Positions 14,729 through 23,566 are shown, counted from the first letter of the stretch. The stretch is DNA of 31,198 nucleotides from a candidate division WOR-3 bacterium (GCA_965649295.1 CBFGKH010000014.1:1-31198); one strand, 5' to 3'. The notes: a model not told the origin generated them from the letters alone. Made by a program: numbers and translations.

Positions 14729-17460
14729 GGTACTACGACCTTGCGACATGACCCGTTGGACACGAGGAAATAGACACCGGCGCTGGGAACCCTGACCTCG
14801 TAACCGGCCTTGGCCGGCCGCGGCTCTGCTGGCTCCAATATTCGGCCGGTCGCACTGACCAACCCGTAGCTAGAATCGGGCAAGACGAACCGCCTACCCA
14901 TCGGCATAAAGACCGTAGCAGCACCAAAGACCGGTACGCTGGCTGCTGGCTCGCTGACTCCGACAAGATTCTGGTCAGTCACCTTGGCGACAATATCCCA
15001 GCCCCGGTGCCGCGGATTACCAGTCCAGGCGAATGCCACCCGGTTGCGCAGCACGACAACAGACTGACCGATGCTCCAGTGCTGTTCTTTGGGAAACCGG
15101 TTCGGCTCATTGATACACTGGTTGTTGCCGATGCGGGTTCGGTCTGACCGGAATCGCTGACAGTAATACTGTGAATTGCCAGCGACATCTCGCTCGTCAT
15201 TGAAACCGACAAAAAGAGTTCCGTCATTGGCAAACGCCAAGCTGGGCGAGTAGCAATCGTTCCCGGCTATGCCGTCGCTGACTCGCTCATTATCTCCCGG
15301 ACGCTGGCCGGTCGAATCGAACCACTGGAGATAAATCTCGTAGCGGTTGTCACGGCCATCCTCCCACGCCACTGCCACTCTGCCGTCGGCGGCGATAGCG
15401 CACGACGGATAGCCCTGATAGGCTCGACCGACGTCAGTATTGACGCGGATGTTCGGCCCAACCCGGCTGCCGTCTGGCCGAAACAACTGACAGTAGATAT
15501 CAAAACCCGAGGCAGAAGAGTTACGGTTGTCCATCCAGCTAACAACAAACCGGCCCGAACGGTTCATCGCCACACTGGCGTAATCGGCCTCAGCCGTCGT
15601 ATCCGATACAGCGAACTCCGGGCCAAAGGGATTGCCAAGGGAATCATAGCGTCGGCAGTAGATGTTAAACGGCCCGTTCCGCATATCCATCCAGACAATA
15701 GCAGCGTTGTCGGCCGAGTCCATAGCGCAGTAAGGATACCAGACAAACGCCGTCCCAGAACTGTTCACCACAAACTCCGGGCCTAGAGGATTACCGGCAC
15801 CATCAAGCAGACGGGCATAGATGTTACTTGTCTGGGGCCCAGTACGAAAATCAGTCCAGGCCGCAACAAAGCGACTGCTGCCGCCAGCAACTGCCGCATA
15901 ATACTGCGCTGCCCCGCCTGCCGGATCGCTGTTCAGGCGCTGATTGGGACCAAGCTCGCTGCCACTGGTGTCGAACACTGCCCGGTAGATGTCGGTTCCA
16001 CCATTCCGTTCATCCTCCCAGACCACACAGAAGTTGCCAGCAGCGGTTGCACCGATTGACGACACTCGCTGGTGGGAACTGGCCCAGTCGTCGTTACGTC
16101 GGCAGCTAGGTCCGGTGGCCATACCGGCCCGGTCGAGCCTAACTCCAAACAGGTCAAAATCACCAAGACGGTCATCAAGCCATACGACCTCGTAGCCGCC
16201 ATCAGGGCAGGCCGCGACAGTCGGAGACTTCTGAACAGCACTACCGACGTCGTCGTTCACCCGAAAAGAGCTTCCCAGCGCCGCACCGTTCGAGTCATAG
16301 CGACGGGCATAGATGTCAGCCGGGCCATTCCGAGAATCAGTCCAGACCACCAAAAACTCACCAAAGCTGTTAGCAGCAACTGCTGGCTCGACCTGGTCAG
16401 CGCTGCCGGCGTCATCGTTCACCCGGAAATCCGGGCCAACCGGTTGTCCTGCCGGGTTGTAGAGCCGAGCATAGATATCATACTGGCCACCAGCCCGCCG
16501 GTCCTCCCAGACAACTAGAAACTCACCCCCCGGTGTGCAAGCAACATCCGGACTCCACTGAATACTGTCATTCGTGGTCACCTGGATGTTGCTACCCAGC
16601 CGACTGCCGTCATTACTAAACCGCTGGCAGAAGATATTCCAGTCATAAGGATTGCGGCCTCGGCCGTCCATCCAGGCGACGACAAACCGACCCGAGTCGT
16701 CACCAGTCACTGCCGGCTCATACTGATTCGCCTGCCCAATGGCGTCGTCGTTCACCCGAAAGTTGGTATCGCGTCTCGTGCCGTCTGGGTTGAAGAACTG
16801 AGCGAATATGTCGCCGGTCAACCCGAACCGCCGGTCATCCCAGGCAACCAGCACAGTCCTGTTCGGTGCGGCATGGACACTAGAAAAGTCCTGGTCACCA
16901 GCAACGCCGGAATCACTCACCCGGAAGTTGGCGCCAATCGGCGAGCCGTCTGGCCCAAACCGCTGGCCAAACAGGTCAGAGTTGCCAATCTCGCGACGGT
17001 CCTCCCAGGTAGCAATGAAACCGCCATCCGCCAGCACCGCAACTGCCGGACTGCCCTGCCAGCCCAACGTGACATCATCGTTCGCCCGCAGATTTGGCCC
17101 CAGCGTAGCGCCACTCGCAGCAAACTGGCCAAACCAGACATCAGCGTCGCCATCCCGAAACTCGTGCCAGAACAGCACGCTCGTACCGTCACCCCTCACC
17201 TTCACTGCTGGTGACTGCTGCGAGGTTCCGCCGGTCGTATCGTCATTGACGACAAAGTCGTTACGCACAACACTGTCCACCACCAAACTTCTGCCCCCTG
17301 CCTTCCGCCCTCGCCAGCCTCGATTCTGCGCTCTACGCTCTTGACCCTTCTCCTCTGACCTCAGTCCCGGCACCGGCCGCAATACCCCGGCCTGCCGCTG
17401 CTGCAGCAACCACTCAACATCACTTGTCCCGGCCAGCAGCAGCACTAGCAGCAAAGTCAT
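14725..17460 (-). CDS. Secreted protein with 14 ~55-aa repeats (probable double 7-bladed beta-propeller) and degenerate T9SS-like C-terminal domain
   Basis: Repeat consensus NFRVNDD....Q..PAVA....G.F.V.W.D.R.G..DIYA..FD..G...G; signal-like N-terminus; tail ..SATGRIL..AGVYFL..RKVVV. Confidence 0.85.
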   Translation of the reverse strand: MTLLLVLLLAGTSDVEWLLQQRQAGVLRPVPGLRSEEKGQERRAQNRGWRGRKAGGRSLVVDSVVRNDFVVNDDTTGGTSQQSPAVKVRGDGTSVLFWHEFRDGDADVWFGQFAASGATLGPNLRANDDVTLGWQGSPAVAVLADGGFIATWEDRREIGNSDLFGQRFGPDGSPIGANFRVSDSGVAGDQDFSSVHAAPNRTVLVAWDDRRFGLTGDIFAQFFNPDGTRRDTNFRVNDDAIGQANQYEPAVTGDDSGRFVVAWMDGRGRNPYDWNIFCQRFSNDGSRLGSNIQVTTNDSIQWSPDVACTPGGEFLVVWEDRRAGGQYDIYARLYNPAGQPVGPDFRVNDDAGSADQVEPAVAANSFGEFLVVWTDSRNGPADIYARRYDSNGAALGSSFRVNDDVGSAVQKSPTVAACPDGGYEVVWLDDRLGDFDLFGVRLDRAGMATGPSCRRNDDWASSHQRVSSIGATAAGNFCVVWEDERNGGTDIYRAVFDTSGSELGPNQRLNSDPAGGAAQYYAAVAGGSSRFVAAWTDFRTGPQTSNIYARLLDGAGNPLGPEFVVNSSGTAFVWYPYCAMDSADNAAIVWMDMRNGPFNIYCRRYDSLGNPFGPEFAVSDTTAEADYASVAMNRSGRFVVSWMDNRNSSASGFDIYCQLFRPDGSRVGPNIRVNTDVGRAYQGYPSCAIAADGRVAVAWEDGRDNRYEIYLQWFDSTGQRPGDNERVSDGIAGNDCYSPSLAFANDGTLFVGFNDERDVAGNSQYYCQRFRSDRTRIGNNQCINEPNRFPKEQHWSIGQSVVVLRNRVAFAWTGNPRHRGWDIVAKVTDQNLVGVSEPAASVPVFGAATVFMPMGRRFVLPDSSYGLVSATGRILEPAEPRPAKAGYEVRVPSAGVYFLVSNGSCRKVVVP

Positions 17461-20400
17461 CGCACGATTGCCAGTTTGGTGAACTTGACCTCGGTTCGGC
17501 CGCCGTTCTCAACCTGTAGCCGCACAACATACATGCCCGGAGCGTAACGGGTGGCGTCGAGCACCAGCTCGTTATCAAGCTCAGGAACAGCCGGGCCCTG
17601 GTATTCGAGTCCGACCGGCTCAGCCGCCATATCAAAAAGCCGCACCCGGACAACACTCTGCCCTGGTCCCAGCCGATACCGAACCCGCGCCTCAGCACCA
17701 GCCGGATTGGGCCAAACATAGAACGAACTGACCATTGCTGCCGTCGGCGTCGGCAGCGAGGGCAACTCATTGTCGCACAGCAACCCGGTGTGGCACGGGT
17801 CGTGGTAGATACCAGACCAGACAATCCGGTCAGCCCGAGCCGGCAGGTTCCAGACATAAAACACACCCAAGTCTGATCCCACGGCGAGCTCAGCCGTGCC
17901 ATTGCCATCAAGGTCAGCAAGCAGCGGCACGGCACTGACACTGCTAGTTGTCAGTAGCGGGAACAAATCGAGGCTCCGGCCATTAGTGCCTGAGAATCCG
18001 AGCACTCCGTATTGTGGCGAGCCGATGACGATGTCGTTTCGGCCATCACCATCAATATCAGCAATCGCTGGTGCCGACGTGTACTGAAAATAGGTCTCAT
18101 ACGAGATTATCCAGTTACCGGCCAGCTCGGTTGTGACAAACGTCGAGTCCTGCTCAAATGGATAGTTACTCACAAGCGTACCGTTGGGATTGAAAGCAAA
18201 CAGCCGGTTCATCCCCGCAGCCAGAACATCGGGCCGACCGTCACCGTTCATATCAGCGCTGGCAGTCGCACCGGAGAAGCCGCTCGGCACCAGCTCACTC
18301 GACGCATACTCAACATTCCCTGCCAGGTCAGTAACCACCAGCCGCAGACGATTGCTGCCCGGCGCGACCACCGCAATCTCAGGACTGCCATCCCGGTCAA
18401 AGTCACCAACAATCGGCTGGGCAGTAGCATAGTAGGGTGCGGTTCCCAGTGTCAGCGGAAATCCGCTTGCCAGACTGCCGTCAGCACCGACAAGATAGAG
18501 ACGGGAGTCACCGGTCAGCACAACAATCTGCGGCCTCGTCGTATCGGTAACTGCGACCGGCGCCCGAATCTCGGCGCCGATGTCCACCGGAAAGCCGGCA
18601 AGCACATTGCCCTGCCCGTCCCAAGCATAGAGGCGACCATCACCCGCACCGAGCAGAATCTCTTTCTTGCCATCACCATCAAGGTCGGATAGCACCGGCG
18701 CGGCAAAAACGTGGTCAGCCGCGTTCATTGTCACCACCGGCCCGCCGTCATTACGAATCACCACCACCCGCCCTGAGTTCTGCGCCACCACCACTTCTGG
18801 CCGGCTGTCGCCAATCACATCGCCGACTGCCGGAGCCATTCGCGTCGGGCCACCGGTATTGATAGAACGGAAGACCGTGCCCGTGTCCCGCCAGATGCGC
18901 AGCACACCAAGAGTATCCAAGGTCACCAGTTCCAGACGGTTGTCGCCATCCATGTCAGCCGCATGGGCCGAAAGAAACGGTGCGCCGGCTGCGGCGATAG
19001 GAAAACCAGTCCGGCCCAGCTCCCACTCGATTCGCACCGGTATCACCGTATCCTTCAGCCGGTCGGCCGAATCGGCATAGCCCAACAGAGTAACGGCCAA
19101 TAGCGACTTGCCGGTGTAACCGTCCGAGTTCGGCGCTGTCCGGGCCGTAAACTTGTCGTTGTAGCCGCCCTTGAAGAAGGGGTCGAACTTGTAGCCGTAA
19201 ATCTCGTAATCTGGAGCACGTGACCGCCAGTATGGCACATCATAGTCCTGCACGCCATCACCCTCTTCGAGGTCCACGCCCTTGTGGCCCGGGTCAATAT
19301 TGACCGCGTTATACGGCCCGTAGTCAGCGATGATGCGCTCGTCCACGTGCCAGATAAGGATACCCGAACCCGGCTGGAAGAAGTCATACTCACCATAGGT
19401 GACGCTAATCATCACCCCATCTTCCATGTCAATGTCAATCGTGTCCGGCTGCCGCACATCAACCTGCCGGTTCTCAATCAGAAAATACTCGCTAGTCGTA
19501 ATCGGAATCTTGACAATCGTCGGTCGCAACGTGTCATCCCAGCCGGCAAAGTTCATCGTATCCATCGCCGCCGCAAAGACCGGCACTGACTCTCGCGGCA
19601 CCCTGACTACCAGCGGACTTATCCAACCCAACCAGTAGCGATGGAAGGCATCGAGGAATCCGGGAATGCTGCCGGGTGGCACACCTGCACCATAGTCACC
19701 AAGCCAGCCGCCATAGCCCATCAGACTCCACGAACCGACCCCCATCGTCACGCCCGTCACATCATAAAGGTCATAAGCTCCGAGCAGGTGGGCAAACTCG
19801 TGGCAGAGCGTGCCGGCCAATCCGGTCATTCCCAGGACATTGGTCTGGTCACCGAACATCGTGTCCTGACGCATCATCTCCGGCAGCACCGTTGCCTGCT
19901 CTATTCGCACCCGGCCCGAATCCACCAGGATATACGGCTCACCCAGGTAAGCCTCGATAGCGCCGGCCGGAATCTCACCCGCCAGCAGGTCGAACGGCGA
20001 ATCCCGGCGCAGACCGAAATCAGCCTGCAGTCCTGACCCGGCGTGAAAGATGATGAACTCGTCGTAGCGGCTGAAATCAATCGCCGGGTCAAGGTCTGCC
20101 ACCCGGAAAGCATCGCGCATCAATCGCACCAGGCCAAGCTCAATAGCAAAGTACGACGCCGTATCGCCATAGAACTGCATCTCCCGCGGCAGTTGATAGC
20201 AACTCTTCTCGTCCTCAGGCATCACCGTGTACTCGACATTGAGCCGGCCCAGCGACTGCGAGCGAAAGTAGTTACGCACGCCCTCCATCTGCCGCTCAAA
20301 ATAACGCTTGAAGTGCGGTGGGTCGTTGAACAGTGGCATTGACTCATACCCAGCAGGATAGAACCCGAGCGTGTCCATCTTGCCATTACCGGTTGTCAGG

Positions 20401-20681
20401 GGCGTTGTGTCCTCGAGAAACTCAACCCGCAAACATAGCACGCGCACGGTCACATCCTGACCCGCACGCAGGCGCCCAATCCGCTCGATATCAGCCTGGG
20501 TCGGTCGGAACCGATACCGCTCGAACGGTCGGACACCCTCCTGAAAACGGTTGTAGGACTGAATGAATCGGCCTGTCTGTTCGGCCTCGCCCGCAATCGG
20601 TCGGCGCTGCGAGCGGACAAGCTGTACCCGCGCCCCATACGCCACCGCCACAAACAGCAGCAGCGGCAGAAGCCACTTCAC
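17457..20681 (-). CDS. Secreted M6-family (immune inhibitor A-like) zinc metalloprotease with FG-GAP/VCBS repeats and T9SS type-A-like C-terminal domain (likely GTG start 20681)
   Basis: Signal peptide KWLLPLLLFVAVAYG; IFHAG, HEFAHLLGAYDLYD, WSLM.YG Met-turn, EYFLIENRQ, SGILIWHVDE; repeated AD.DGDG..E.V motifs; tail VWPNP..FD...PGMY.VRL..K.AIVR. Confidence 0.9.
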   Translation of the reverse strand: MKWLLPLLLFVAVAYGARVQLVRSQRRPIAGEAEQTGRFIQSYNRFQEGVRPFERYRFRPTQADIERIGRLRAGQDVTVRVLCLRVEFLEDTTPLTTGNGKMDTLGFYPAGYESMPLFNDPPHFKRYFERQMEGVRNYFRSQSLGRLNVEYTVMPEDEKSCYQLPREMQFYGDTASYFAIELGLVRLMRDAFRVADLDPAIDFSRYDEFIIFHAGSGLQADFGLRRDSPFDLLAGEIPAGAIEAYLGEPYILVDSGRVRIEQATVLPEMMRQDTMFGDQTNVLGMTGLAGTLCHEFAHLLGAYDLYDVTGVTMGVGSWSLMGYGGWLGDYGAGVPPGSIPGFLDAFHRYWLGWISPLVVRVPRESVPVFAAAMDTMNFAGWDDTLRPTIVKIPITTSEYFLIENRQVDVRQPDTIDIDMEDGVMISVTYGEYDFFQPGSGILIWHVDERIIADYGPYNAVNIDPGHKGVDLEEGDGVQDYDVPYWRSRAPDYEIYGYKFDPFFKGGYNDKFTARTAPNSDGYTGKSLLAVTLLGYADSADRLKDTVIPVRIEWELGRTGFPIAAAGAPFLSAHAADMDGDNRLELVTLDTLGVLRIWRDTGTVFRSINTGGPTRMAPAVGDVIGDSRPEVVVAQNSGRVVVIRNDGGPVVTMNAADHVFAAPVLSDLDGDGKKEILLGAGDGRLYAWDGQGNVLAGFPVDIGAEIRAPVAVTDTTRPQIVVLTGDSRLYLVGADGSLASGFPLTLGTAPYYATAQPIVGDFDRDGSPEIAVVAPGSNRLRLVVTDLAGNVEYASSELVPSGFSGATASADMNGDGRPDVLAAGMNRLFAFNPNGTLVSNYPFEQDSTFVTTELAGNWIISYETYFQYTSAPAIADIDGDGRNDIVIGSPQYGVLGFSGTNGRSLDLFPLLTTSSVSAVPLLADLDGNGTAELAVGSDLGVFYVWNLPARADRIVWSGIYHDPCHTGLLCDNELPSLPTPTAAMVSSFYVWPNPAGAEARVRYRLGPGQSVVRVRLFDMAAEPVGLEYQGPAVPELDNELVLDATRYAPGMYVVRLQVENGGRTEVKFTKLAIVR

Positions 20682-20684
20682 TGC

Positions 20685-20724
20685 CTGTCCACTAGACGAC
20701 TTGTTCACTGGACCACTTGACCAC
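20685..20724. repeat. Five imperfect tandem 8-mers between tRNA-Ser and the protease start
   Basis: Minus strand reads GTGGTCAA GTGGTCCA GTGAACAA GTCGTCTA GTGGACAG. Confidence 0.6.
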
Positions 20725-20740
20725 ATCCGGCCACGCAATC

Positions 20741-20830
20741 TGGCGGAGAGAGAGGGATTTGAACCCCCGATACCCTTACGGGTATACGTGATTTCGAGTC
20801 ACGCGCCATCGTCCACTCGGCCATCTCTCC
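20741..20830 (-). tRNA. tRNA-Ser(CGA), CCA encoded
   Basis: GGAGAGA acceptor stem, CGTGA-CT-CGA-AA-TCACG anticodon arm, long variable arm, GTTCAAATC T-loop, ends GCCA. Confidence 0.97.
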
Positions 20831-21302
20831 GTGATTCAGTTCGCCGGCGACTGAAGAACCGCTGCAACAGCTCTGCCGCCTCATCAGCCCGCACGCCAGC
20901 ACTGACAACCAGCCGATGATTGAACCGGTTGTCTGCCGCAATATCATACTGCGAGCCGAGGCAGCCGAACTTCGGGTCCGACGCCCCGAACACCACCCGT
21001 TCGGGCCGGGCCAAAATCAGCGCACCGGTACACATCAGGCAAGGCTCAATCGTCACGTAAACAGTCGCCCCGGCCAGCCGCCAGTTACCAATCGCCGCCG
21101 CGGCCGCACCAAGCGCCAGAATCTCGGCATGGGCAGTCGGGTCAAGTAACGCCTCGGTGCGGTTATGGCCGCGACCAATCACCGCTCCGGCCCGAACCAC
21201 CACACAGCCGACCGGCACCTCGCCTTCGGCCTCAGCCAGCCGGGCCTCGTCCAAAGCGAGAGCCATCCAGCGTTCGTCTTCAGCCCTATTCGGTTGTAGC
21301 AA
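20799..21302 (-). CDS. tadA: tRNA adenosine(34) deaminase
   Basis: DE.WM..AL, GEVPVG, DPTAHAE, WRL....YVT.EPC.MC.GA, FGA.DPK.G, FNH and LLQ.FF..RR motifs. The last 32 nt overlap tRNA-Ser. Confidence 0.96.
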   Translation of the reverse strand: MLQPNRAEDERWMALALDEARLAEAEGEVPVGCVVVRAGAVIGRGHNRTEALLDPTAHAEILALGAAAAAIGNWRLAGATVYVTIEPCLMCTGALILARPERVVFGASDPKFGCLGSQYDIAADNRFNHRLVVSAGVRADEAAELLQRFFSRRRTESRRDGRVDDGA

Positions 21303-21304
21303 AA

Positions 21305-21378
21305 CGCGCCCGGCGCGACTCGAACGCGCAACCTACGGATTCGTAGTCCGGCACTCTATCCAATTGAGCTACGGGCGC
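21305..21378 (-). tRNA. tRNA-Arg(ACG), no encoded CCA
   Basis: GCGCCCG/CGGGCGC acceptor stem, AGCTCAATTGGATAGAG D-arm, CT-ACG-AA anticodon loop, GTTCGAGTC T-loop. Confidence 0.96.
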
Positions 21379-21392
21379 GTGTCTTCGGGGCT

Positions 21393-21420
21393 ATTCTATT
21401 GGCTGGCGCTGACCAGTCAA
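21393..21420 (-). promoter_or_regulatory. Putative sigma70 promoter of tRNA-Arg-tadA-tRNA-Ser
   Basis: TTGACT-16 bp-TAGAAT, 14 nt before the tRNA 5' end. Confidence 0.7.
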
Positions 21421-21878
21421 GGACTGTCCGACTCTGGCGGCGGCAGTGGTTCCTCGGCTGACCGGAACCACTTGCCCATGCTGATAACCTCTTGTTCGAC
21501 AAAGCCACACTTGCGGTAGAAATCCACCACCCCGATCTTATCCGGATCAATCTGAATCTTCACCCGCGGACAGCCCTGCTCCCGCAGCCAGTTCTCGGCA
21601 TACTCGACCATCGCCCGACCGATGCCGCGGCGCTGATAATCCGGCCTTACTGCCAGCCGGTAGAGCCAGCCGCGCAGGCCGTCATAACCGACAATCACCG
21701 TTGCCACAATCTGGCCGTCATAGACTCCAACAAAGAACGAGTCCGGGCTGTGCCGCAGCTTCTTCTGAATGTCGTTGCGCGGGTTGACTGCGCCCCGCAA
21801 CAGCCCAGCACTCTGCCAGACACCGAGCACGCTGTCGGTGTCCTCAATAACGAACCGGCGAATCTCAAGACCTTTCAT
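21417..21878 (-). CDS. GNAT family acetyltransferase (YpeA-like)
   Basis: NPRNDI..K, GYDG.RGW.Y.LAV.P..Q.RG.GR and FY..CGF motifs; ATG 21878. Confidence 0.88.
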   Translation of the reverse strand: MKGLEIRRFVIEDTDSVLGVWQSAGLLRGAVNPRNDIQKKLRHSPDSFFVGVYDGQIVATVIVGYDGLRGWLYRLAVRPDYQRRGIGRAMVEYAENWLREQGCPRVKIQIDPDKIGVVDFYRKCGFVEQEVISMGKWFRSAEEPLPPPESDSP

Positions 21879-21919
21879 CGTGCCGGTCAAGACTACGGCC
21901 AGCACCCGTGCCGGTCAAG
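21879..21919 (-). promoter_or_regulatory. Putative promoter of the GNAT gene, embedded in a 13-bp direct repeat
   Basis: TTGACC-17 bp-TAGTCT; CTTGACCGGCACG occurs at 21919..21907 and 21891..21879. Confidence 0.55.
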
Positions 21920-21925
21920 TCGGCA

Positions 21926-23566
21926 CTAGAGGTCGCGCCGCCGGGCACGCCAGCGCCGCACCACCCGATCAACATCCATCTCGTGAATACCGGCGGTCCA
22001 CCACTTCGCATACTGCACATCGGCACTCTCTGGTTTGGGATTGGGGCAGTCAATCAAGACCCGGGTCGGCAAAGCCACCGCATCACCCAGAAGCAGCGCC
22101 TCACCGGTTCGCAGTGCCGGCAGCATTGCCAAGAGCCCGGCCAACGAATCCGGCACGAGCCGGCGCACATAGTCCTGGTCATCCGGATTGGTCAGCCGCA
22201 TCGCCACAAAGTTGTTACACTGCGACAAGACCGTTTCCGAAAGCTCCTTTGGCCGCTGTGACACAATCACCGTACCGATGCCATACTTTCGGCCCTCCTT
22301 CATTATCCGCTCAATCGCGGTTCGGGCTGCCGAAAAGCGAGCATCCTGCCGGTTCGGCACATAATTGTGCGCCTCCTCCAGCACCAACAGCACCGGAAAC
22401 CGGTCCCGCTCCGGATTCCAGAGATTGAACTCAAACACCATCCGCGAGACAACCGCCACCACCACCCCGACCGCCTCTGACGGCACGCCCGACAGGTCAA
22501 TAATCGCCATTTTCTTACCGGTATTGATTGAAAGATAGTCCCGCAGCAACTGGCCCAGACTGTCATTGTCGGCATAGCGCTCGGGCGCAAACATAAACCG
22601 ATACCGCGGGTCACTCACCTTCGAATCAAACCGAATCAGAAACCGGTCAAACGCGCCGTAAAGCGGCCCTGGCTCCAGCTCGCCCTTTGCATTCGGCACC
22701 ATCTGAATATTCCACGACCGAATCTGACCCAAAAGGTCCTCAAGACTGAACCAGACCGGCGAATCCGCGGTCACCCTCGCCCCCTTGCGCAGATTAGCCT
22801 CGCCCACCGTGCCCTCTCGCGCCCGCAACAAGGCATCACGCAGCACCGTCACCTGATTGCGAGCAGTAGCCTCGCTCATATCAATCGTCAGGTCCTGAAA
22901 CTCCTCAAAGTTCATCACCCAATACGGCATCTCCACTTTATCCGGATGCACGAACAAAACATCGTCCTCGGCAAACGCCGCTGCATACTCACCGTGCAAG
23001 TCGAGCACTACGATATGCGTATCCGGATACTTCCGCACCGCCTGTTGCAACATCGAGACCACGGCACACGACTTGCCGCAACCGGTCGTGCCCAGCACCG
23101 CCACATGCTGACCAAAGAAACGGTCAATGTTCACAAACGCTCGCTCATTCGGCGCCTGTGACGGCCGCCCAAAAGAATAACCGTATTCGTGAAACTCCGA
23201 GAAGATGTGCGACAGCTCAGCCACAGCCACCATCTGCGCCGGCTGGCCCACATTCGGATAGACCGCTACTCCCCGTTCAAACTTGCCCTGCTCTGACAGC
23301 GTCCCTATCAAAATGCAGTCGGCAATCCGGCGACAGGCCGCATCCGGCCCAGCACTGCCCAGCAAGGGCCGACCGCACTCCATCCGCACGCTCGCCACAA
23401 TGCCAATAACACTGTGGTCTGCAAAAGGAATCTTCAGATGCGAACCGGGCTGGCCCGGATAATAATCTGCTGCCAGCGGCTGTGTTGGGTCAGCGGTCAG
23501 CTCAACTAGCGCCCGCTCACCACTCACCTCAACAACATAACCAATATCAGTATCAAGACGATGCAT
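21926..23566 (-). CDS. HerA-like (DUF87 / HerA-FtsK superfamily) ATPase with N-terminal beta-barrel
   Basis: H.AVLGTTGCGKS Walker A, DLHGEY, LVLEEAHNY Walker B, EGRKYG, VSQRP.EL..TVLSQC and RLTN..DQ motifs; GAAGGAG RBS. Confidence 0.9.
   Translation of the reverse strand: MHRLDTDIGYVVEVSGERALVELTADPTQPLAADYYPGQPGSHLKIPFADHSVIGIVASVRMECGRPLLGSAGPDAACRRIADCILIGTLSEQGKFERGVAVYPNVGQPAQMVAVAELSHIFSEFHEYGYSFGRPSQAPNERAFVNIDRFFGQHVAVLGTTGCGKSCAVVSMLQQAVRKYPDTHIVVLDLHGEYAAAFAEDDVLFVHPDKVEMPYWVMNFEEFQDLTIDMSEATARNQVTVLRDALLRAREGTVGEANLRKGARVTADSPVWFSLEDLLGQIRSWNIQMVPNAKGELEPGPLYGAFDRFLIRFDSKVSDPRYRFMFAPERYADNDSLGQLLRDYLSINTGKKMAIIDLSGVPSEAVGVVVAVVSRMVFEFNLWNPERDRFPVLLVLEEAHNYVPNRQDARFSAARTAIERIMKEGRKYGIGTVIVSQRPKELSETVLSQCNNFVAMRLTNPDDQDYVRRLVPDSLAGLLAMLPALRTGEALLLGDAVALPTRVLIDCPNPKPESADVQYAKWWTAGIHEMDVDRVVRRWRARRRDL

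Follow-up and report, generated by a model that had tools for sequence, protein, structure and literature searches.

A tadA gene set between tRNA-Arg(ACG) and tRNA-Ser(CGA), with its stop codon inside the downstream tRNA, in a candidate division WOR-3 bacterium

Anatomy of the tRNA-Arg-tadA-tRNA-Ser locus

The DNA analysed here is a stretch of 31,198 nucleotides from a candidate division WOR-3 bacterium (GCA_965649295.1, CBFGKH010000014.1:1-31198), referred to as the window, and the gene in question is tadA, which encodes the tRNA adenosine(34) deaminase. All features of the locus are carried on the minus strand, in the order promoter, tRNA-Arg(ACG), tadA and tRNA-Ser(CGA). The upstream tRNA is the substrate of the enzyme, and the stop codon of tadA is situated within the downstream tRNA. 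The features are as follows, with the coding sequence (CDS) and neighbouring genes called as open reading frames (ORFs).

21393..21420, minus strand: putative sigma-70-type promoter, TTGACT-16-TAGAAT, matching 10 of 12 consensus positions, at the head of the tRNA-Arg/tadA/tRNA-Ser unit
21305..21378, minus strand: tRNA-Arg(ACG), the TadA substrate (Rfam RF00005, 63.4 bits; ARAGORN 21304..21379), with anticodon loop CUACGAA
20799..21302, minus strand: tadA CDS, an ORF of 167 amino acids (aa) from TTG 21302; alternative start ATG 21266; stop TGA 20801..20799
20741..20830, minus strand: tRNA-Ser(CGA), CCA encoded (ARAGORN; Rfam RF00005, 56 bits)
20799..20830, minus strand: 32-nt overlap of tadA and tRNA-Ser, where the last 10 tadA codons and the stop run through the acceptor stem, the D arm and the 5' strand of the anticodon stem
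20835..20855, minus strand: inverted repeat in the 3' end of tadA, probably due to chance (-6.5 kcal/mol, z = +0.4)
21417..21905, minus strand: upstream neighbour, a GNAT acetyltransferase (ORF and Pfam), whose stop codon abuts the -35 hexamer
17457..20738, minus strand: downstream neighbour, an M6-peptidase/FG-GAP protein (ORF and Pfam), with candidate starts 2-59 nt past tRNA-Ser

In the register given by Rfam, tRNA-Arg(ACG) has a standard 7-bp acceptor stem and its discriminator G at 21305. The gene does not encode CCA, the discriminator being followed by TTTTGCTAC (TTTTGC), and TTG 21302, found 2 nt past the discriminator, is the sole in-frame ATG, GTG or TTG upstream of ATG 21266. At its other end the tadA frame closes with ..RRTESRRDGRVDDGA*, reaching its TGA 32 nt inside tRNA-Ser(CGA), in the 5' strand of the anticodon stem, and the tail residues RRDGRVDDGA of TadA are read from the tRNA-Ser sequence. 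An earlier note on this DNA had described a single promoter, a tRNA-Arg(ACG) without CCA, a TTG 2 nt later and a stop 32 nt into tRNA-Ser, and this description is confirmed by the consensus scan, ARAGORN, Rfam and the ORF analysis (TGA 20801..20799 within 20830..20741).

The genome comprises 2.28 Mb in 19 contigs and contains 47 tRNA genes and a transfer-messenger RNA (tmRNA), with tRNA-Arg(ACG) and tRNA-Ser(CGA) each present as the single gene for its isoacceptor. A same-strand ORF of at least 100 aa ends inside just one of these 47 tRNA genes, namely the tRNA-Ser(CGA) of tadA, and the stop-in-tRNA overlap is more than chance in this genome.

Judged by its sequence, the ORF is a bona fide and ordinary TadA, and nothing about the enzyme itself is unusual. 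The protein passes the NCBIfam equivalog NF008113 (162.6 bits vs a cut-off of 150), with residues 6-158 on profile positions 4-156 of 165, and it also matches Pfam deaminase families as well as the solved TadA structures 7cph, 2b3j and 1z3a (E 1e-39 to 1e-43). In an alignment of 29 sequences from the phylum, the window's included, the HAE and PCxxC columns (H58, A59, E60, P87, C88, C91) are invariant, while the tail past the conserved FFxxxR motif is unconstrained. The deaminase is called essential in Escherichia coli and Bacillus subtilis in a published article (PMC4014445).

The likely start codon is TTG 21302. It is favoured because the residues EDERW, encoded in frame before ATG 21266, fit the conserved N-terminal motif of the family in the 29-sequence alignment, and because the protein numbered from the TTG is in register with the E. 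coli TadA chain 1z3a over residues 8-160 of both. A survey of starts at 55 loci with a nearby tRNA-Arg found a canonical start located after the tRNA and ahead of the conserved Met in 54; in most of the 55 the start falls 0-25 nt past tRNA-Arg, usually 6-25 nt, with an A/U-rich spacer. At four loci (L001, L011, L017 and L044) the sole candidate is a TTG at offset 0-1 from the tRNA. The genome uses Shine-Dalgarno (SD) sites: an SD-like 4-mer occurs at -16..-4 in 24% of first starts (ORFs of at least 200 aa) vs 7% inside ORFs, with a peak at -10, and the 16S tail reads ..CACCUCCUUUCU and carries CCUCC. No SD-like motif was found before either TTG 21302 or ATG 21266, in agreement with the earlier observation that the tadA start lacks one.

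Several further features were recorded around these genes. A terminator scan picked out the 3' end of tRNA-Arg (21305-21317, minus strand) as terminator-like, with a 5-bp GC hairpin followed by TTTTG; this hairpin falls at the exact tRNA/tadA junction and would compete with the cloverleaf. Downstream, the M6-peptidase/FG-GAP gene (1093 aa) has candidate starts 2, 14, 32 and 59 nt past tRNA-Ser(CGA), the last of which opens a signal-peptide-like sequence (20680-20738), and it may be transcribed together with tRNA-Arg, tadA and tRNA-Ser. A sub-threshold Rfam match to the proteobacterial small RNA (sRNA) sX4 at 20684..20840 (minus strand; 40 bits vs a gathering score of 70) was rejected as a true sX4, as the match coincides with tRNA-Ser and its trailer and probably reflects similarity to tRNA-Ser in that model. 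Elsewhere in the genome are genes for tRNA-Sec (C5:88305-88399) and tRNA-Arg(TCG) (C10:57062-57135), and the presence of the latter alongside tRNA-Arg(ACG) provides two routes to read CGA codons.

Recurrence of the gene order and of the overlap

The gene order is the same at every locus examined from the order to which the bacterium belongs. A tadA gene was detected in 27 of the 30 related genomes of that order, giving 28 loci together with the window, and in all 28 tRNA-Arg(ACG) stands upstream and tRNA-Ser(CGA) downstream of tadA on the same strand. Seven of the loci, all of family f1 (the window genome G000 with G003, G004, G005, G009, G012 and G013), stop at the same TGA inside tRNA-Ser and share the tail (R/W)RDGRVD(D/E)GA*. 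A survey of relatives had been proposed in the earlier note as a check on the conservation of the locus; its outcome bears out the gene order throughout and the overlap in only these 7 of 28.

Across the phylum, tadA was detected in 128 of 151 genomes at E <= 1e-25, and 60 further loci were picked by hand to spread over families, several of them reaching a contig end. Among these 60, tRNA-Arg(ACG) lies upstream in 35 and tRNA-Ser(CGA) downstream in 35, both being present in 25 and neither in 15. The tadA stop is found inside tRNA-Ser in 12 of them, with overlaps of the following lengths.

14 nt: L052, L053, L073, L074, L086
22 nt: L046, L049
23 nt: L064
24 nt: L079
47/48 nt: L048, L044
94 nt, the whole tRNA-Ser: L050

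Overlaps total 19 among the 88 phylum loci, 63 of which have tRNA-Ser, and they come from 8 of the 33 sampled families, with lengths of 14, 22-24, 32-33, 47-48 and 94 nt. On a TadA tree, which is rough (35 of 85 inner branches unresolved), the overlap state needs at least 12 changes. In four of the 14-nt cases (L052, L053, L073 and L086) the protein ends in FFxxRRDG*, and the codon of the near-invariant Arg154 is made up of one upstream base and nucleotides 1-2 of the tRNA. Of the frames available in tRNA-Ser, the one with the earliest stop is used by 18 of the 19 overlapping genes, which is what genuine use of those stops would predict. The cases do not count as independent, since 15 of the 19 share one frame. 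The idea that the tRNA has been adapted to supply the stop was considered and rejected: the D-arm variant GGCTGAG, which places a TGA at nucleotides 12-14, also occurs in non-overlapped tRNA-Ser(CGA) genes of the phylum (L041, L057 and L059) and of the cross-phylum sample described below (L116, L124 and L128).

A few loci depart from the common pattern. At L050 (G061:C2) the tadA frame continues through the entire tRNA-Ser(CGA), which adds about 34 tRNA-encoded residues; it is the only overlap off the earliest-stop frame, and the 94-nt length could be a sequencing error in that assembly. In L048 and L049 (genomes G073 and G065, respectively) the tRNA gene immediately ahead of tadA is tRNA-Lys(CTT) and not tRNA-Arg(ACG), and in L038 (G045) tRNA-Arg(TCG) replaces tRNA-Ser directly downstream, at a gap of 3 nt.

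Outside the phylum, 599 stretches of species genomes matched a pattern scan, and the best 80 of them were taken; this sample is neither complete nor random, and the record titles name many phyla. Within the best 80, tRNA-Ser(CGA) is found on the same strand within 300 nt downstream of tadA in 27, tRNA-Arg(ACG) within 300 nt upstream in 6, and both in 4, with linkage seen for example in records titled Pyxidicoccus, Deltaproteobacteria and Gemmatimonadota. In none of the 27 loci linked to tRNA-Ser does the tadA stop lie inside the tRNA, the smallest gaps being 3, 5, 5, 7, 10, 10 and 11 nt. The order tRNA-Arg(ACG)-tadA-tRNA-Ser(CGA) is thus old and widespread, occurring in several phyla, and among the loci examined the overlap was seen in this one only. 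Three of the cross-phylum records (L168, L099 and L164, titled Pyxidicoccus, Deltaproteobacteria and Myxococcales) show a one-strand cluster of tRNA-Ser(TGA), tRNA-Ser(GCT), tRNA-Arg(ACG), tadA, tRNA-Ser(CGA) and tRNA-Ser(GGA). The Ser(GCT)-Arg(ACG) pair in it resembles the serV-argV cluster of E. coli. No account of linkage between tadA and tRNA genes, or of a stop-in-tRNA overlap, was found in full-text literature searches, which included excerpts of PMC4014445, PMC3711424, PMC4681348 and PMC4633059.

Proposed expression of tadA from a tRNA transcript

The transcription signals are concentrated ahead of tRNA-Arg. In the window, TTGACT-16-TAGAAT is the only minus-strand match to a promoter consensus within 20300..22100. 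In all 21 family loci examined, a motif of the form TTGAC(T/C)-16/17-TA(G/C/A)AAT starts 37-49 nt upstream of tRNA-Arg, and a looser pattern is found there in 40 of 51 loci overall. In the 100 nt leading up to tRNA-Ser, a promoter-like motif is present in 1 of 39 tight loci (gap of at most 13 nt, or overlap) vs 6 of 24 loose ones, and the window's spacers of 2 nt and -32 nt offer no room for separate signals. By consensus scans the locus has the layout of a mixed tRNA-mRNA operon, with a promoter before the first tRNA and no promoter or terminator between the genes. Because of this anatomy we strongly infer that tRNA-Arg, tadA and tRNA-Ser are co-transcribed, and from it follows a conflict between RNase P cleavage and termination.

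Machinery for tRNA processing and for ribosome rescue is encoded in the genome, which contains RNase P RNA (257 bits), a tmRNA with the tag ANNSYALAA, and its partner SmpB (177 bits). A cut at 20831/20830 leaves an end of ...UCAC, with no partial stop, and the complete TGA is situated 30-32 nt inside tRNA-Ser. The earlier note had also drawn attention to an inverted repeat just before tRNA-Ser. It exists, at 20855..20835 and 4 nt from the tRNA, but it is neither significant nor conserved: at -6.5 kcal/mol it scores z = +0.4 vs shuffles, and at the junctions of the other six same-family overlap loci no hairpin stands out (z -1.2 to +1.3). On these grounds it was rejected as a processing element.

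Our favoured reading, which we consider probable though well short of assured, is that the tadA message forms part of an old tRNA operon, that TadA is translated before RNase P frees tRNA-Ser, and that cleavage leaves a non-stop mRNA. One strong promoter of the tRNA type before tRNA-Arg would drive the whole tRNA-Arg-tadA-tRNA-Ser precursor. Both spacers would have shrunk to near nothing in this phylum, leaving tadA to end a few nucleotides from tRNA-Ser or within it, and the overlap would be tolerated since the TadA tail past FFxxxR is free to vary and the frame simply runs to the first stop in the tRNA. Full-length TadA would then need the first 14-48 nt of tRNA-Ser in its message, and could be made only from the uncut precursor, because the stop, and in some families part of an Arg codon, lies in the tRNA. 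Most plausibly this would be done by ribosomes trailing the polymerase, which would meet the stop while the 3' half of the tRNA is still to be transcribed and the cloverleaf cannot yet form. The RNase P cut would subsequently free tRNA-Ser and leave a stop-less tadA mRNA as a substrate for tmRNA and SmpB. A strong stable-RNA promoter, combined with a weak TTG start that lacks an SD site and a short-lived message, would yield little TadA, and its output would follow the transcription of its substrate tRNA gene.

Several observations weigh against this reading. The promoter scans cover sigma-70-like motifs only, such that an unusual internal promoter could escape them. The RNA contigs (X15 and X16; six RNA runs with small shares) cover the tRNA parts only, at 85-99% likeness, derive from other organisms and say nothing either way. 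No RNase Z orthologue (TIGR02651) was found above the cut-off in the genome: the best protein, with 33 bits in one search and 44 in another against a cut-off of 293, was dismissed as a generic metallo-beta-lactamase-fold protein. The start codon of tadA is uncertain as well, and ATG 21266 is a possible start because the relative L005 has this conserved internal ATG as its only canonical one; moreover, judged by E. coli, leaderless initiation would be poor at a TTG just 2 nt past a tRNA. The earlier suggestion that tRNA processing shapes the tadA mRNA fares unevenly, the conflict between RNase P and termination following from the anatomy and the idea of a leaderless message being weak for a TTG start. 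Short spacing is also not special to tadA, in that several other tRNAs of the genome are closely followed by same-strand ORFs. Finally, in 21 of the order's 28 loci the tadA stop falls 1-66 nt short of tRNA-Ser, in 15 of them at 13 nt or less, and within a single genus G009 overlaps and G018 stops 10 nt upstream. Stops upstream of the tRNA in relatives had been named in the earlier note as evidence that would count against its proposal, and this is what most of the order has. The overlap is labile and not required, and its consequences must therefore be mild or buffered.

By mechanical ORF calls, 17 of the 47 tRNA genes of the window genome have a same-strand long ORF with a possible start about 0-15 nt past their 3' end. 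Examples are tRNA-Leu(GAG) on contig C1, tRNA-Ile(GAT) on C3, tRNA-Asp on C2, tRNA-Arg(CCT) on C11 and tRNA-Ala(CGC) on C7. Nearly leaderless mRNAs led by a tRNA may be common throughout this compact genome.

One alternative is that an assembly or base-calling error, for example an indel near the 3' end, created a run-on frame and that the real stop precedes 20830. The window comes from a 19-contig assembly, and metagenome contigs often break at tRNA genes; yet two hot-spring-labelled metagenome DNA runs (X1 and X2) each hold one contig about 96% identical to the window over 20801/20803..21330/21331, with 20-22 substitutions and 0 gaps, and the one change near the end of the gene, at 20838, is synonymous in the tadA frame. 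No indel restores an earlier stop, and the frame is genuine. Given in addition that 6 other genomes of the family use the same TGA in the same frame, and that 12 more phylum loci overlap at other positions, the chance of an artefact is negligible. A second alternative, unlikely on present evidence but deserving of more weight, has tadA expressed independently from ATG 21266, on its own RNA or on a stable processed one, with a tRNA-Ser promoter inside tadA and the overlap a mere matter of DNA packing. ATG 21266 is a canonical codon and the sole such start in L005, the 2.28-Mb genome is compact with many tRNAs closely trailed by ORFs, and promoters not of the sigma-70 type are outside the reach of the scans. 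Against it, EDERW upstream of that ATG fits the family motif, and the Pfam, NCBIfam and Protein Data Bank (PDB) alignments begin at residues 6-8 of the protein read from the TTG. Furthermore, no minus-strand promoter-like motif is seen between 21393 and 20300, such a motif precedes tRNA-Ser in only the one tight locus of 39, and any tadA mRNA that bears a stop must include the 5' third of tRNA-Ser, whatever its promoter.

The third alternative is the one to which the earlier note had leaned, a dedicated feedback circuit in which the clamp would have evolved to put TadA under the control of tRNA maturation, the level of the enzyme sensing tRNA processing or editing state: 3' processing of tRNA-Arg would create a leaderless mRNA, and RNase P at tRNA-Ser would remove the stop. 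The position of tadA 2 nt behind the gene of its only substrate speaks for such a circuit, as do the conservation of the linkage across the phylum and its occurrence in others, the origin or retention of the overlap in 8 families, and the presence of RNase P, tmRNA and SmpB. However, the overlap is missing from three quarters of the order's loci and differs within one genus, the stop positions range from 14 to 94 nt, no conserved RNA element marks the junction, and the D-arm TGA variant in non-overlapped tRNAs means that the tRNA is not visibly adapted to the ORF. Nothing found in the analysis shows a feedback circuit, and we regard one as improbable. A related proposal is that TadA synthesis is gated by tRNA processing, in that it must finish before the RNase P cut, and that TadA bound to precursor tRNA-Arg could also block initiation, which would amount to a substrate-sensing loop built from a real tRNA, old and widespread and sharpened in this phylum. 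It is equally doubtful. Were it true, each transcript would give at most about one TadA molecule per pair of tRNAs, and cut transcripts would be non-stop messages. We instead attribute the overlap to a collapse of the spacer within an old tRNA operon, with real mechanistic consequences and an adaptive value that is unproven, because the overlap is labile, the tail is free, the repeat is insignificant, the D-arm variant occurs in non-overlapped tRNAs and other tRNA-led ORFs are present.

The arrangement runs counter to expectation, as bacterial protein genes are not expected to have their stop, still less a codon for a conserved residue, inside a downstream tRNA gene, where maturation of the tRNA destroys the message. 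It is nonetheless stable enough to recur in 8 families of the phylum, at the gene of an enzyme generally regarded as essential, and it brings out the deep linkage of TadA with its only substrate gene. At about 0.7 kb, the locus is also a compact natural system in which to measure how translation, tRNA folding, RNase P and trans-translation compete. Annotation is affected too, as gene callers that do not allow a CDS to overlap a tRNA will truncate or miss tadA in these genomes.

Comparison with known systems

As a protein, the TadA of the window is like the bacterial enzymes of known structure (1z3a, 2b3j and 7cph) in its equivalog score, its HAE and PCxxC zinc motifs and, from the TTG, its E. 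coli TadA length. It differs from them in that its last 10 residues are dictated by the sequence of tRNA-Ser.

Mixed tRNA-mRNA operons are well known from E. coli, where they include thrU-tyrU-glyT-thrT-tufB, metY-nusA-infB and secG-leuU. As in these, a protein gene and tRNA genes would be expressed here from a tRNA promoter, with RNase P and 3' processing separating the parts. Unlike in these operons, tadA is flanked by tRNAs on both sides, at spacers of 2 nt and -32 nt, and its product modifies the upstream tRNA. The stop of tadA also lies inside the downstream tRNA, and release of that tRNA therefore destroys the end of the frame.

A second parallel is offered by animal mitochondria, where, according to the tRNA punctuation model ascribed to Ojala, Montoya and Attardi, mRNAs are reportedly cut from a polycistronic precursor by tRNA processing. 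The message proposed here would likewise be nearly leaderless and have an incomplete 3' end. In mitochondria, polyadenylation fills in truncated stop codons, and we know of no such completion in bacteria. In contrast to the mitochondrial case, cleavage would turn the tadA mRNA into a non-stop substrate of tmRNA, and the arrangement concerns a single locus and is not a genome-wide rule.

The thrS operator, finally, is an example of translational autoregulation by a tRNA-like element next to a start codon. At tadA, too, the RNA ligand of the enzyme is placed directly upstream of its own start, and steric control of initiation is conceivable, the likeness being one of resemblance only. Unlike the thrS operator, which is a mimic, the element at tadA is the real substrate tRNA.

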